Virus genome (UHGV): UHGV-0138535
Length of the DNA stretch: 53,721 nt
Strand: one strand, 5' to 3'
From: a virus
This document shows, one piece after another, positions 3,064 through 17,305 of this stretch. The position numbers and the translations under genes are program-made. Below the pieces are notes generated by a model. That model was not told where the DNA came from. It made no database searches and was given only the letters and a program-made list of their open reading frames with translations. Numbering within the stretch: position 1 is the first letter of the stretch; every line of letters starts with the position of its first letter.

Positions 3064-3684
3064 TTAATGCAGTACACGTTTCCCCTGTTCAGGCATCGGC
3101 TGTGCGTTTTTCCGTGCGTCATTAAGCACAGCGATAGCCGCCTGTACACCGAAATCATTTGCACGCATATCATTGCCAACCATTTCACCGTAAAACAATG
3201 GCATGAGCGCTTTTACTTCTTCCTCTTTGTGGCCTTCCTCAATGAATTTCTGCAACATCTTAACCTCAAAGATATCTTTCATCAGGCCGCGCATAGAATG
3301 TAGTGAAACACTACCAAGCTGATCCTTGTTCAACGGAAAAATAACAGCACTTCCGAACGCGAGCGGTTCAACCTCTTCCGGCACTGGTACGCGTCCGAAT
3401 TCTTCCTCCATGCGCTTCACAAAAGTAAGAGAGAATACATAACGCGCCACCGATGTTTTTTCTTCCATACTTAAAGACACGTAATCGCGGATTGGCGCAC
3501 CCATCACAATATCAACAACCTGTAGCGCCAGATTCAAATCAGCGTCATACGCGCCAGCTTCCATATCTTTCAATACTTCGTGATAATCTTTAATTTCCAC
3601 TTCGTGAAAGTTTGCATCATCTGTATAGCGAGTGATCAACATACCTTCATTACCGAGAGAGTAAGCTGTTTTGATGTCGTTCAT
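3064..3684 (-). CDS. hypothetical early protein
   Basis: 206-aa track ORF in early-left operon. Confidence 0.5.
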   Translation of the reverse strand: MNDIKTAYSLGNEGMLITRYTDDANFHEVEIKDYHEVLKDMEAGAYDADLNLALQVVDIVMGAPIRDYVSLSMEEKTSVARYVFSLTFVKRMEEEFGRVPVPEEVEPLAFGSAVIFPLNKDQLGSVSLHSMRGLMKDIFEVKMLQKFIEEGHKEEEVKALMPLFYGEMVGNDMRANDFGVQAAIAVLNDARKNAQPMPEQGKRVLH

Positions 3685-4474: not shown

Positions 4475-4593
4475 CACGGCAACCCTCTAAAAATAAAGCT
4501 AACCAACGCAGCAAATGCGCCACAAGAAACAACCACAAACAGGAAGCAAATAATGCAAAACGCGACAGTCACAATATCCTTACCGACTTTCAT
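4474..4593 (-). CDS. hydrophobic micro-protein (39 aa, single predicted TM helix)
   Basis: ATG preceded by GAGG; MKVGKDIVTVAFCIICFLFVVVSCGAFAALVSFIFRGLP; not in ORF track (<60 aa). Confidence 0.4.
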   Translation of the reverse strand: MKVGKDIVTVAFCIICFLFVVVSCGAFAALVSFIFRGLP

Positions 4594-14633: not shown

Positions 14634-15290
14634 ATGAGTAAATCAAAAGCAATCGGTGTGATTAGCCATCGCACTAACCCTGAATGCTACCCATCGTTTG
14701 AAGTATCGACATGCAGGGAAGAATATAATTTTGGATCATGTTATTTAGTTGGTGTTCGCGCTGATCGCGGCACTTATTCTGTTATGGCGGCAAGCTGGAA
14801 GTTTGATAAATATGCCAATTTATCTAATAAAGATGATGATGGCATGAACAAAGAAAGTGAAATCATTGACGAATTAATCGAAGATGAGCGGCATGATTGC
14901 GATACGCCAGAAGTTACGGAATGGATGGCAGGAGAAAAGCCTCCATGCGGAGTATGGCTTGAGCTTCTAGATCCTGTCGATGGTCGGAAATATGTTATTC
15001 TGAAATACAAGTATATAAGTGATCGCCTTGCTCTTTTTGTAGAAATGGATGCGCCTGATTTTGAACAAGCCGGGGAATGGAAGCATTTCGCTCATAAGTT
15101 GTATGTAGATCCGAAAGAAAAAATACTGGCTGAAATTGCGTTTGCACTTGCTACTAAGGTTATCGGTGAAGATGCTGCAAAAGAAATTGATTTTAACCGC
15201 GACAACGAATTTTCGTGCGATTATCGCAATATGGCGCAAGCTATTATAGACGGATGTATAGGACACGTTGAATACACGGGGGGTGAATAA
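14634..15290 (+). CDS. hypothetical protein (AT-rich)
   Basis: 218-aa track ORF; AT-rich. Confidence 0.5.
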   Translation: MSKSKAIGVISHRTNPECYPSFEVSTCREEYNFGSCYLVGVRADRGTYSVMAASWKFDKYANLSNKDDDGMNKESEIIDELIEDERHDCDTPEVTEWMAGEKPPCGVWLELLDPVDGRKYVILKYKYISDRLALFVEMDAPDFEQAGEWKHFAHKLYVDPKEKILAEIAFALATKVIGEDAAKEIDFNRDNEFSCDYRNMAQAIIDGCIGHVEYTGGE

Positions 15291-15520
15291 TGGATAAAAC
15301 GGCAACAATTCTTCTTAGTCGCCCTGCCATCTGCCGTATGCTGGGGGGAATTAGCAGGGGAACGTTTTACTTATGGCGTAAAAAGTGGGAACGGAACGGA
15401 ACTCCGTTCCCGGCCCCTGTTGATGTACTTGGTACCGGGCGTGGCGTTATGTACCGCTATCAGGACGTAATGCAGTTCTTTGATCAGATTGGTTTAACGT
15501 CAGCCAAAGATAATACATAA
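15290..15520 (+). CDS. AlpA-family HTH regulator / putative excisionase
   Basis: 76 aa; ICRMLGGISRGTFYLWRKKWERNGTPFPAPVDVLGTGRGVMYRYQDVMQFF matches AlpA/Xis-type HTH; overlaps integrase 3' end convergently by 37 nt. Confidence 0.65.
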   Translation: MDKTATILLSRPAICRMLGGISRGTFYLWRKKWERNGTPFPAPVDVLGTGRGVMYRYQDVMQFFDQIGLTSAKDNT

Positions 15521-16674
15521 TCCGCAAACTTATTTAGTGCCTCCTTTTGTTCATCAAGATAATCATATTTGTCGTACACCGCCAGTATCCCCCTTAATGA
15601 ATGGCCTAAGACCTTTTCTGCAATATGTACCGGAACACCTATAGCTGAAAGGTGTGTCCGGCACGTCCTGCGGAGGTCGTGACAGGACCATGATTTACCG
15701 CCCATCCTTTTACGCACGAATATTGCAGCTACTTTTATCACTGATGCGTTTACTGGCCTGTTGCCGCCGTTAATCACTGGCGGGAATACATAATCATACT
15801 CATGGGAGGTTAAAACCTCCCTGAGCATTTTTATCGACAAGTCAGATAATCCCCGCCTGATTTCACTTCTTGTCTTCGCCACCGCCGCCGGAACGGTCCA
15901 TACACCGTTGTCCAGGTCTAGGTGTTCCCTTCTCATTTTCTGCAATTCACCAACCCTACACCCGGTTAGCAATAATAGCTTTAAGGCTATTTTGTTCTGC
16001 GGATAGATCTGCGAACTGTCTACCGTGCGCCAGAAGTGGCCTATCTCCTCACATGAAAGGTAACGCTCCCCCACCGCATAATGCTCGCCAACGTCAGCTA
16101 CACGGATATTGTTTATCGCCGTGTTAGTCATTAGCCCGCGCCTGATTGCGCTGTTAACGATGATTTTCATTCGCTTCAATATCAAACCAGCCGTAACCGC
16201 GTGACCCGCCGCAGTGATCTCGCCAAATATATCCATCCACTGTTTTGTCGTTACGTCGTCAGCTATGTAGTCGCCGTACTTGTTGACAACATGGCGCATC
16301 AATGCGCTTTTGACTTCTTTATATGCCACCAGCTTAATGACGTTCGGCAGGGATAGATAGTCTTCCACTACGTCTGTTATCGATCTCTTGCCCTGTTCAA
16401 AGGCTATGGCCTGCTTTACGCACAGTGCCGGATTCTTCCCTTTCGTAAGCAACTCCCTGTATTCAGCCACCGCGTAGCGGGCGTCTTTCAGACTCATTTT
16501 CCCGTACTCGCCGATCTTCATTCGCACTGGCTTACCGTTGAATCTGTAACGGTACTGGAAAGTAATTTTTCCTTTTGGACTTATCCTGGCTGACAGGCCG
16601 TCACGATCAGCTATCTCGCTTGGGCCGTCGTATGGCTTGTTGGCGATGGTCCTTAACCTGGTATCCGTAAGCAT
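15484..16674 (-). CDS. int: tyrosine integrase (P4-like, with N-terminal arm-binding domain)
   Basis: Track ORF 15484..16776; likely start ATG 16674 (GGGGG upstream); N-terminal arm-binding-like region, C-terminal catalytic region with HDLRRT and VLGHS. Confidence 0.85.
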   Translation of the reverse strand: MLTDTRLRTIANKPYDGPSEIADRDGLSARISPKGKITFQYRYRFNGKPVRMKIGEYGKMSLKDARYAVAEYRELLTKGKNPALCVKQAIAFEQGKRSITDVVEDYLSLPNVIKLVAYKEVKSALMRHVVNKYGDYIADDVTTKQWMDIFGEITAAGHAVTAGLILKRMKIIVNSAIRRGLMTNTAINNIRVADVGEHYAVGERYLSCEEIGHFWRTVDSSQIYPQNKIALKLLLLTGCRVGELQKMRREHLDLDNGVWTVPAAVAKTRSEIRRGLSDLSIKMLREVLTSHEYDYVFPPVINGGNRPVNASVIKVAAIFVRKRMGGKSWSCHDLRRTCRTHLSAIGVPVHIAEKVLGHSLRGILAVYDKYDYLDEQKEALNKFADYVLSLADVKPI

Positions 16675-16685
16675 GTTGCCCCCAT

Positions 16686-16950
16686 TTTTGGTCACGTTTT
16701 GGTACACAGTTTTTGTTGTACGGATATTAACAGTATTGTACGGAATTAGAAACGTGATGCCGGATTTTGGTTGCAACCGAATGATTTTTAAGTGATTTTA
16801 GTGGCGTAATTGAACGGGGTTAAACACCTTTAAACATAGTGCGCAGGTCCTGTCTGGAATGATTAGTGTAACTAATAATCATTTATAAAACAGAATGTTA
16901 TGTTGTTTTTGATTTTGGTTTTTGATATTTGGTCACTATTTGGTACACAA
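16686..16950. other. candidate attP / integrase arm-site region
   Basis: AT-rich non-coding segment upstream of int flanked by near-identical 24-bp direct repeats (TTTTGGTCACGTTTTGGTACACAG / ATTTGGTCACTATTTGGTACACAA) plus TTGTACGGA and TTTTGGTT repeats. Confidence 0.35.
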
Positions 16951-16977
16951 AAAGAAACGAGGCGTTAGCCTCGTTTC
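16946..16977 (-). terminator. intrinsic terminator at end of tail-fibre operon
   Basis: Hairpin GAAACGAGGC-GTTA-GCCTCGTTTC followed by TTTTT on minus strand. Confidence 0.6.
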
Positions 16978-17020
16978 TCGGCGATGCTTTCAACATCACC
17001 ATGCTATCACTGCCGCATCA

Positions 17021-17305
17021 TTAAGCCCATGCGCGGACGCCTGGATCTGGAACGATGAAAGGCTCAAGCTGAGAAATATCAACATCGTCACCAGTTATAC
17101 GCACGTTGACGTAATAACCTTTTTTCCCAATAAGTACAGGTGTCTCGCTTTCTGGATCGTCGAATACAAGGACAAAACCGATATCATCAATAAACACGGT
17201 TGACCAATTGGCATCCAGCCAGCCGCTATTAATCACAATGTCGTTGTATTGCTGTTTGTCAGTAAATTGCAAGCTAACGTCTTTCATGTTAACCACCTTA
17301 AACAA
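17021..17305 (-). CDS. hypothetical protein downstream of tail fibre
   Basis: 94-aa track ORF overlapping fibre gene 3' end by 8 nt. Confidence 0.4.
   Translation of the reverse strand: MFKVVNMKDVSLQFTDKQQYNDIVINSGWLDANWSTVFIDDIGFVLVFDDPESETPVLIGKKGYYVNVRITGDDVDISQLEPFIVPDPGVRAWA

Follow-up and report, generated by a model that had tools for sequence, protein, structure and literature searches.

Which genes and sites carry a mEp021-like phage into the Escherichia coli chromosome and out of it again, and where does the phage go? The question is raised by a locus of the virus genome UHGV-0138535, a stretch of 53,721 nucleotides (nt) that we refer to, at its full length, as the window. At this locus a small helix-turn-helix (HTH) gene and an integrase gene (int) converge and overlap, and an AT-rich segment bearing repeats lies upstream of int. 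UHGV-0138535 is, to judge by its sequence, a temperate coliphage of the mEp021 group ("mEpimmI"), with 84% nucleotide identity to mEp021, mEp515 and mEp554. Phage DNA lies on either side of the intergenic region, so the window holds the unintegrated attP form. The locus is the integration and excision module of an E. coli phage, made up of an integrase, an excisionase-like gene and an attachment site. We put at roughly 80% the probability that the whole is rightly read as the mEpimmI site-specific recombination module in its attP form, comprising the integrase (Int), pairs of arm-type sites and an excisionase of 76 amino acids (aa). It is an ordinary, well-formed representative of a known class, and its insertion site was in the literature before.

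The attP core and its host target

The integrase gene, the attachment region and the core lie as follows.

15484-16674, minus strand: tyrosine integrase, 396 aa, P4-like and heterobivalent, with arm-binding and catalytic domains (Pfam; PHROG 1 integrase)
16675-16951, no strand: the attP region entire (P arm, core, P' arm), 35.0% G+C against 45.7% for the window
16847-16858, no strand: attP core GTCCTGTCTGGA, 12 bp, an exact match to codons 13-17 of dgcM (..S P V W I..)
16858-16883, no strand: imperfect palindrome AATGATTAgtgtaacTAATaATCATT, 26 bp, abutting the core on the P' side

Where does recombination occur? Junctions were read from attL and attR of the prophage of E. coli MS 21-1 and from the empty site of K-12. 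Homology on the fibre side begins at 16847 in 24 E. coli lysogens, and homology on the int side ends at 16858, where dgcM is annotated, in at least 10 closely related ones (complete genomes, 91-98.7% identity); the core is therefore 16847-16858, between the repeats. The host site attB reads ...CTCACCAGTCCTGTCTGGATCGTTTCG..., attP reads ...GTGCGCAGGTCCTGTCTGGAATGATTAG..., and the sequence common to both is GTCCTGTCTGGA. On the evidence of these junctions Int recombines the 12-bp core with the identical sequence in host dgcM (ydaM), and strand exchange would have to fall inside those 12 bp. A first-pass annotation of this DNA had proposed lysogen junctions and identity of the core to a host locus as the test of an attP here, and the junctions at 16847-16858 bear the proposal out. 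It had also suggested comparison with the 3' ends of host transfer RNA (tRNA) and transfer-messenger RNA (tmRNA) genes, and such a target is ruled out, the core lying in the protein-coding 5' region of dgcM. ARAGORN found no tRNA or tmRNA in the window, and 15000-17400, searched against Rfam with E up to 1, returned zero RNA families.

The dgcM-integrated prophage of MS 21-1, at 98.7% nucleotide identity over the stretch from the HTH gene through int, is listed in a 2025 study of this phage group (PMC11893012). The type I mEp021/mEpimmI phages of that study belong with the window to one group, share its gene order and likewise insert into the 5' region of ydaM/dgcM; for mEp021 this integration was verified by polymerase chain reaction. 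Its Table 2 assigns MS21-1, M1/5, FAH, PAR, KKa019 and Ecol_244 to integrase type I (ydaM). The window belongs with these strains, sharing 91-98.7% nucleotide identity with them across the HTH gene, int and the P arm, and dgcM stands at the junction in all of them. The study covers the short att motifs and the integrase types, and makes no mention of attP arms, an excisionase or a gene overlap.

What becomes of dgcM? At the site the gene reads MITHNFNTLDLLTSPVW|IVSPFEEQ. As the junctions are read, integration cuts dgcM from its promoter and first 17 codons and leaves the reading frame unrepaired, and the promoter-proximal piece becomes MITHNFNTLDLLTSPVWND-stop. In-frame stops flank the core on either side. 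Restoration of dgcM by the phage was considered and is ruled out: on the int side a TAG at 16837-16839 precedes the distal dgcM piece, and the fibre side ends MITHNFNTLDLLTSPVW-ND-stop. It is the palindrome at 16858-16883 that supplies the TAG terminating the 19-aa DgcM remnant. This palindrome is kept between types Ia and Ib and is absent in type II; it may be a core-type site, a site for a bending protein, or something else. The identity between attP and attB is 12 bp in the window against 9 bp in mEp021 (CTGTCTGGA). That 3-bp difference matches PMC11893012 in size; mEp021 is labelled both type Ia and type Ib within that paper.

Arm-type repeats on both sides of the core

Four features are needed here.

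16686-16709, plus strand: P-arm pair, TGGTCAC at 16689-16695 and TGGTACAC at 16700-16707, 11 bp start to start
16927-16950, plus strand: P'-arm pair, TGGTCAC at 16930-16936 and TGGTACAC at 16941-16948, 71 bp from the core
16716-16744, plus strand: TTGTACGGA twice, 20 bp apart, with copies at 16716 and 16736
16952-16979, minus strand: intrinsic terminator of the tail-fibre (late) operon, a 12-pair stem then TTTGTGT

The first-pass annotation had described a 265-bp AT-rich segment bracketed by 24-bp direct repeats and lying next to the fibre terminator, and all three parts of that description hold. The 24-mers TTTTGGTCACGTTTTGGTACACAG and ATTTGGTCACTATTTGGTACACAA agree at 20 of 24 positions and span 265 bp from first to last. 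Each is a tandem pair, and the four TGGT(A)CAC copies keep one orientation throughout. Read outward from int, the order is the ATG, 14 bp, the P-arm pair, 139 bp, the 12-bp core, 71 bp, the P'-arm pair and the terminator. The P-arm pair thus starts 14 bp from the int ATG, immediately upstream of a GGGGG run. At the far end the terminator stem (16953-16963 and 16968-16978) is a perfect 11-nt inverted repeat whose T-run leads into the P' arm sites; this terminator is kept in every integrase type and is annotated as such in mEp010. When the 53.7-kb window was searched for the 22-nt pattern TTTGGTCACNNTTTGGTACACA with up to three mismatches, only these two sites were found (0.00 expected from 100 shuffles).

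We infer that the repeats are arm-type sites bound by the N-terminal domain of Int. With arm pairs 139 bp (int side) and 71 bp (far side) from the core, Int would bridge arms and core in the manner of λ, with its residues 1-85 on the arm pairs and its C-terminal domains on the core.

The shorter repeats fare unevenly. TTGTACGGA and GATTTTGGTT are each present twice; the TTTTGGTT repeats find no comparative support. The type Ib phage mEp021 has ACGGA(T/A) twice at a spacing equal to that of the TTGTACGGA pair, and GGATAnTAACA within this stretch is common to types Ia, Ib and II, type II otherwise having different local repeats (ACACGATrGAA). The TTGTACGGA pair is a candidate for excisionase or accessory-factor sites, or for part of the int control region. 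The GATTTTGGTT pair, at 16763 and 16911, is kept in neither mEp021 nor mEp010 and may be chance in AT-rich DNA. Another motif, AAACAGAATGG(A)AT, is seen in distant HTH-int modules at 120-190 bp upstream of int, and a shortened form stands at the P' arm of the window (16889-16898).

L021 about 4520-4545; L026 about 3527-3550 and about 3592-3620; L027 about 2935-2955: copies of AAACAGAATGG(A)AT

Conservation of the arms around unrelated cores

Are the arm sites kept when the core is not? The attP sites of mEp021 (type Ib) and mEp010 (type II) were rebuilt by joining the ends of their records, and both have the same tandem pair on each side. In mEp010, whose Int is 50% identical to that of the window, the core is ACTTATCTTTTGAATGG, in the 3' end of abgT and unrelated to the window core; between arms and core the two sequences do not align, and even so the core stands 127 and 68 bp from its arm pairs (139 and 71 bp in the window). 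In LSU61 the type III prophage carries the variants TGGCGCAC/TGGTACAC beside int and TGGTACAC/TGGTGCAC on the far side. Beyond the group, three other phage backbones were reached by way of distant homologues of the HTH protein, and in each an integrase with an Arm-DNA-bind_3 domain is preceded by two to three tandem copies of TGGTACAC or TGTACAC. Taken together, a tandem TGGTAC(A/G)C-type pair lies no more than about 60 bp upstream of int in all seven HTH-int modules and also in mEp234, WGPS8 and Oslo; the P'-arm pair is kept in types Ib, II and III, mEp234 and Oslo.

A protein search among deposited phages led to the Salmonella phage Oslo, whose pairs stand 29/41 and 260/272 bp away from the int ATG, the second at a distance matching the P'-arm pair of the window. 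In the type-2851 module of mEp234 and Stx2a_WGPS8, TGGTAC(A/G)C pairs flank the annotated sbcB-type core, and the arm region of Phi24B has the shortened motif TGTAC(A/T/G)C. Across these elements Int residues 1-85 are 50-67% identical and the core-binding domain 17-40%; that the N-terminal region of Int is its conserved part was reported in the 2025 paper (PMC11893012). The first-pass suggestion of arm sites around an attP core is thus supported, with the lysogen junctions inside the bracketed segment and with motif and spacing kept around unrelated cores. Scans with the integrase were less informative: GTDB genomes gave just two distant island integrases, which tell us nothing, and IMG/VR gave near-identical phages alone.

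According to the 2025 paper, abgT is the target of type II integrases and mppA that of type III (PMC11893012). One phage group with three integrase types and shared arm sites has its targets abgT, dgcM and mppA in one small chromosomal neighbourhood (our loci L003, L002/L004 and L009), and the spacing of about 7 kb between target genes was noted in the same paper. Type II insertion leaves abgT annotated without its C-terminus.

The integrase gene and its control

16795-16823, minus strand: sigma-70 promoter-like site directed toward int (TTAACC, 17 nt, TAAAAT), from a consensus scan, 9/12 matches

The int stop codon is the TGA at 15484-15486, and the likely start is the ATG at 16674 (MLTDTRL...). 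A start at the TTG at 16776, which an open reading frame (ORF) tool gives for a 430-aa product, is unlikely, since the arm-binding domain and the N-termini of homologues, which begin MLTDT... or MALSDT..., favour the ATG. Residues 2-84 match Arm-DNA-bind_3 (DUF4102, PF13356) with E 9.1e-20 and 71 bits against a cut-off of 27, and residues 207-367 match Phage_integrase (PF00589) with E 1e-20. The catalytic residues of the pattern R...HxxR...H/W...Y were recognized by eye, in the motifs TGCRVGE, HDLRRT, LGHS and AVYDKYDY. Int is 89.6% identical in amino acid sequence to mEp021 Int, which is 8 aa longer. In the deposited mEp010 record (L007 150-185, PP180001.1) the int start lies 12 codons further upstream and reads through the P-arm sites; this annotated start is probably too far upstream, as homologues begin at the downstream MLTDT.

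The GGGGG run, at 16678-16682 on the minus strand, resembles a Shine-Dalgarno sequence. The candidate promoter lies between the core and the P arm sites and would remain linked to int in the prophage. Int would then be read from its own promoter inside the P arm, convergent with the early operon and hence uncoupled from it. Because the arm sites sit between the candidate promoter and the ribosome-binding site, int is probably autoregulated by Int. No plus-strand promoter-like site directed toward dgcM was found in the P arm.

A candidate excisionase at the end of the early operon

15290-15520, plus strand: winged-helix HTH protein, 76 aa, encoded at the end of the early operon; candidate excisionase (recombination directionality factor)
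14634-15290, plus strand: ORF of 218 aa without a Pfam or PHROG match, penultimate in the early (replication/NinB) operon

What directs the reaction toward excision? The HTH gene, which ends in a TAA at 15518-15520, is the likely candidate. Homologues of the 218-aa ORF that precedes it occupy the same position in mEp021, MS 21-1 and LSU61, and this gene is kept in all integrase types. The start of the HTH gene overlaps its stop as TAATG, which suggests translational coupling. As the last, translationally coupled gene of the early operon, the excisionase would be made only upon derepression of that operon, and would then direct excision.

The predicted fold of the HTH protein resembles known excisionases and has the winged-helix form of solved AlpA-family proteins. 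In an exhaustive search its homologues fell into just 18 representative clusters (a word-indexed protein search gave close E. coli relatives alone). The gene converges on int and overlaps it in each of the types Ia, Ib, II and III, as it also does in three unrelated backbones. Between types the HTH protein and Int diverge in step (44% against 50% identity). In Phi24B the ORF at the 3' end of int has been shown experimentally to be a functional excisionase under early-operon control (PMC3064807). To the excisionase (Xis) of mEp234 the window protein is only remotely similar (hhalign probability 59%). On fold, linkage and the Phi24B precedent, the HTH protein is most likely an excisionase, AlpA-like in fold and outside the Pfam AlpA family. 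The AlpA-family label of the first-pass annotation is thus right as to the winged-helix fold and wrong as to the profile: AlpA (PF05930) matches neither the HTH protein (E up to 10) nor 16 family members (E up to 1), and the type II homologue reaches E 0.2 and 12 bits against a cut-off of 21. The only Pfam family found for the protein is HTH_23, and searches of Pfam, NCBIfam, PHROGs and PDB sequences gave generic HTH or sub-threshold matches only.

In the type III prophage of LSU61 (E. coli O157:H7) the HTH homologue is a 77-aa protein left unannotated by PGAP (L031 8373-8606; NZ_CP038336.1 about 2946372-2946605). It overlaps int by 61 bp.

Several observations weigh against the reading of the locus as a complete recombination module. 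Excisionase profiles do not match the HTH protein, the closest being Xis_Gifsy_1 (NCBIfam) at E 0.031 and HTH_17 (Pfam) at E 0.11, both far below cut-off. The Foldseek E-values are weak for so small a protein, and two HTH homologues, P0017 and P0021, have no adjacent integrase. The int promoter match is weak, and the region holds fewer such matches than its shuffles do. An exact match to the consensus WATCAANNNNTTR of integration host factor (IHF) does not occur in the attP region, the five matches elsewhere being at chance level. The integrase of Phi24B is reported to function without IHF (PMC7581858), and by analogy this integrase clade may use another bending factor, or none. Finally, we infer, rather than observe, that Int occupies the arm sites, that the HTH protein serves as excisionase and that int has the promoter described.

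Does the convergent overlap regulate?

15484-15520, no strand: 3'-end overlap of the HTH gene and int, 37 bp, encoding the last 11 residues and the stop of each protein
15378-15411, minus strand: terminator-like hairpin and T-run in the sense of int, inside the HTH coding sequence; 11-pair stem with 6 G-C pairs, then ACTTTTT

The overlap of 37 bp at 15484-15520 is as the first-pass annotation gave it, and the same annotation saw in it a means of antisense interference between excision and integration. The overlap measures 37 bp in type Ia, 61 bp in Ib, 43 bp in II and 61 bp in III; the three other backbones have 34, 25 and 73 bp, mEp234 and WGPS8 have 20 bp each, and Phi24B has 17 bp. Every module examined has an overlap, within 17-73 bp. 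On this comparison the convergent overlap of excisionase gene and int is a trait of the clade, inherited with the module. Is it also a switch? One can imagine that in lysogens the excisionase mRNA meets an antisense partner in the 3' end of the int mRNA, so that leaky synthesis of the excisionase is damped, and that early transcription after induction in turn lowers Int, antiterminated early transcripts running antisense through int with collision or duplex formation, as a functional analogue of λ sib retroregulation.

Beyond the constancy of the overlap itself, the hairpin speaks for such a switch. It folds at -17.4 kcal/mol and lies about 75-105 nt downstream of the int stop; if it is used, the int mRNA would be antisense to about the last 140 nt of the HTH mRNA. 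An int-sense hairpin with a T-run at +66 to +104 nt recurs in mEp021, mEp010 (type II, in a different stem register), LSU61 and L021, so that five of the seven modules compared have one inside the HTH gene. On the plus strand no convincing terminator was found beyond the HTH gene, the one candidate being a weak hairpin of 6 pairs within int (16293-16308), and the phage group uses N-like antitermination (PMC11893012). Other points tell the opposite way. The overlap is not constant in length and takes in nothing but variable or disordered tails of the two proteins (residues 72-76 of the HTH protein have a predicted local distance difference test score, pLDDT, below 50). The hairpin and T-run were not detected in L026 or L027, and the hairpin falls within the conserved KKW...GTPFP coding stretch, so that its conservation may reflect the protein. 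Excision requires Int and excisionase together, which limits the use of mutual repression, and the Phi24B study mentions neither 'antisense' nor 'overlap' (PMC3064807). Antisense control is plausible; that the overlap is in fact regulatory we regard as possible and, on balance, somewhat unlikely.

Which protein binds the repeats?

Could the TGGT(A)CAC repeats be bound by the HTH protein, as excisionase or repressor sites, and not by the N-terminal domain of Int? The HTH gene is co-inherited with int, so a motif near int could belong to either protein, and the P-arm pair, just upstream of the int ribosome-binding site, is well placed for an int repressor. The motif is unchanged, however, in mEp234, WGPS8 and Oslo, and the mEp234 Xis is remote, the recognition-helix regions reading GVSSRQTIW against GGISRGTFY, whereas the N-terminal domain of Int is still 58-66% identical. 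Because the motif persists where the excisionase is barely related, the Int domain is the favoured binder. Identical pairs on both arms, at λ-like distances, are typical of arm-type Int sites; excisionase sites in λ attP are usually on one arm only. Binding of the repeats by the HTH protein is in our judgement quite improbable. That the repeats are a chance similarity in AT-rich DNA or terminator leftovers, with no role in recombination, draws on the 35% G+C of the segment and on several shorter repeats that are not conserved, and is hardly credible when the 22-nt pattern is matched in none of 100 shuffles and the pair is kept in sequence, orientation and spacing around three unrelated cores with intervening DNA that cannot be aligned.

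Relation to known systems

Arm-type sites bound by Int remain our reading of the repeats, and with them the module is readily compared with others. The gene map of the window has the layout of the Phi24B/KplE1 type, with int opposite to the early operon, attP upstream of int and the putative excisionase gene (xis) distal. As in Phi24B, mEp234, HK140 and WGPS8, a P4-like integrase is read away from attP, in the window from a predicted promoter of its own and not as part of the early operon; as in Phi24B, mEp234 and WGPS8, where the overlaps are 17-20 bp, a small xis at the end of the early operon converges on and overlaps the 3' end of int. The int gene of Phi24B is inverted relative to that of λ, is driven by a promoter of its own and escapes repression by CI (Fogg et al., PMC3064807). 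The N-terminal domain of Int is 58-63% identical to those of Phi24B and type 2851; identity is only 34-35% over the whole length and 17% in the core-binding domain. The cores and host targets of these modules (sbcB for type 2851) are unlike those of the window, and their Xis is a recognizable AlpA/HTH_17 protein, to which the window protein is only remotely similar. Phi24B differs also in its shorter arm motif.

KplE1 (CPS-53), with IntS and TorI, offers a second parallel. The IntS promoter overlaps attL and is negatively autoregulated by Int and the directionality factor (PMC2951348). Its position in the attL/P-arm region, uncoupled from the directionality factor, resembles that predicted, and only predicted, in the window. 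KplE1 differs in having the argW tRNA gene as its target and an arm-type consensus with TAAA (PMC2951348).

The λ paradigm is preserved in its essentials: the integrase is heterobivalent, arm sites flank a short core within an attP of some 265 bp, and a probable excisionase would set the direction. An early antiterminated transcript could also modulate int, as in λ. In λ, int and xis are co-directional, overlap head to tail and are both transcribed from pL, and attP lies downstream of int. The window differs in the inverted orientation of int, which has attP on its upstream side and the putative xis convergent with it.

Apart from the module, we note a small plus-strand ORF at 19235-19537, between minus-strand tail-fibre genes. 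An internal start yields MKKLIVACILSALSFGAFAS..., which is signal-peptide-like, and the product may be a lysogenic-conversion or exclusion protein.

Implications

What does the analysis add? The additions are an arm-site signature and an excisionase assignment, and their value is chiefly for annotation. A gene labelled only 'helix-turn-helix' in the records is here proposed to have an excisionase role. The signature consists of tandem TGGTAC(A/G)C pairs separated by about 240 bp, the core lying in the interval. It can be used to find attP across a broad clade of P4-like integrases that includes Shiga toxin (Stx)-converting phages, and these arm sites are not described in the literature cited here. 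The comparison of types also shows a modular change of specificity, in which the arm sites and the arm-binding domain are kept, and each of the targets dgcM, abgT and mppA goes with a core and a core-binding domain of its own.

Two further consequences may be considered, and that either holds seems to us unlikely: that the overlap and the embedded int terminator form a clade-wide antisense or collision switch, or that the prophage acts as a reversible switch of DgcM ('active lysogeny'). The second is possible because insertion cuts dgcM after codon 17 and leaves it unrepaired; that the lysogens are without intact dgcM, a regulator of curli expression, was noted in the 2025 paper (PMC11893012). 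If the antisense or collision switch is real, the ratio of Int to Xis would be set differently in lysogens and after induction across the whole Phi24B/mEp021 clade. If active lysogeny is real, these prophages would reversibly switch the DgcM-dependent curli and biofilm pathway of their hosts.

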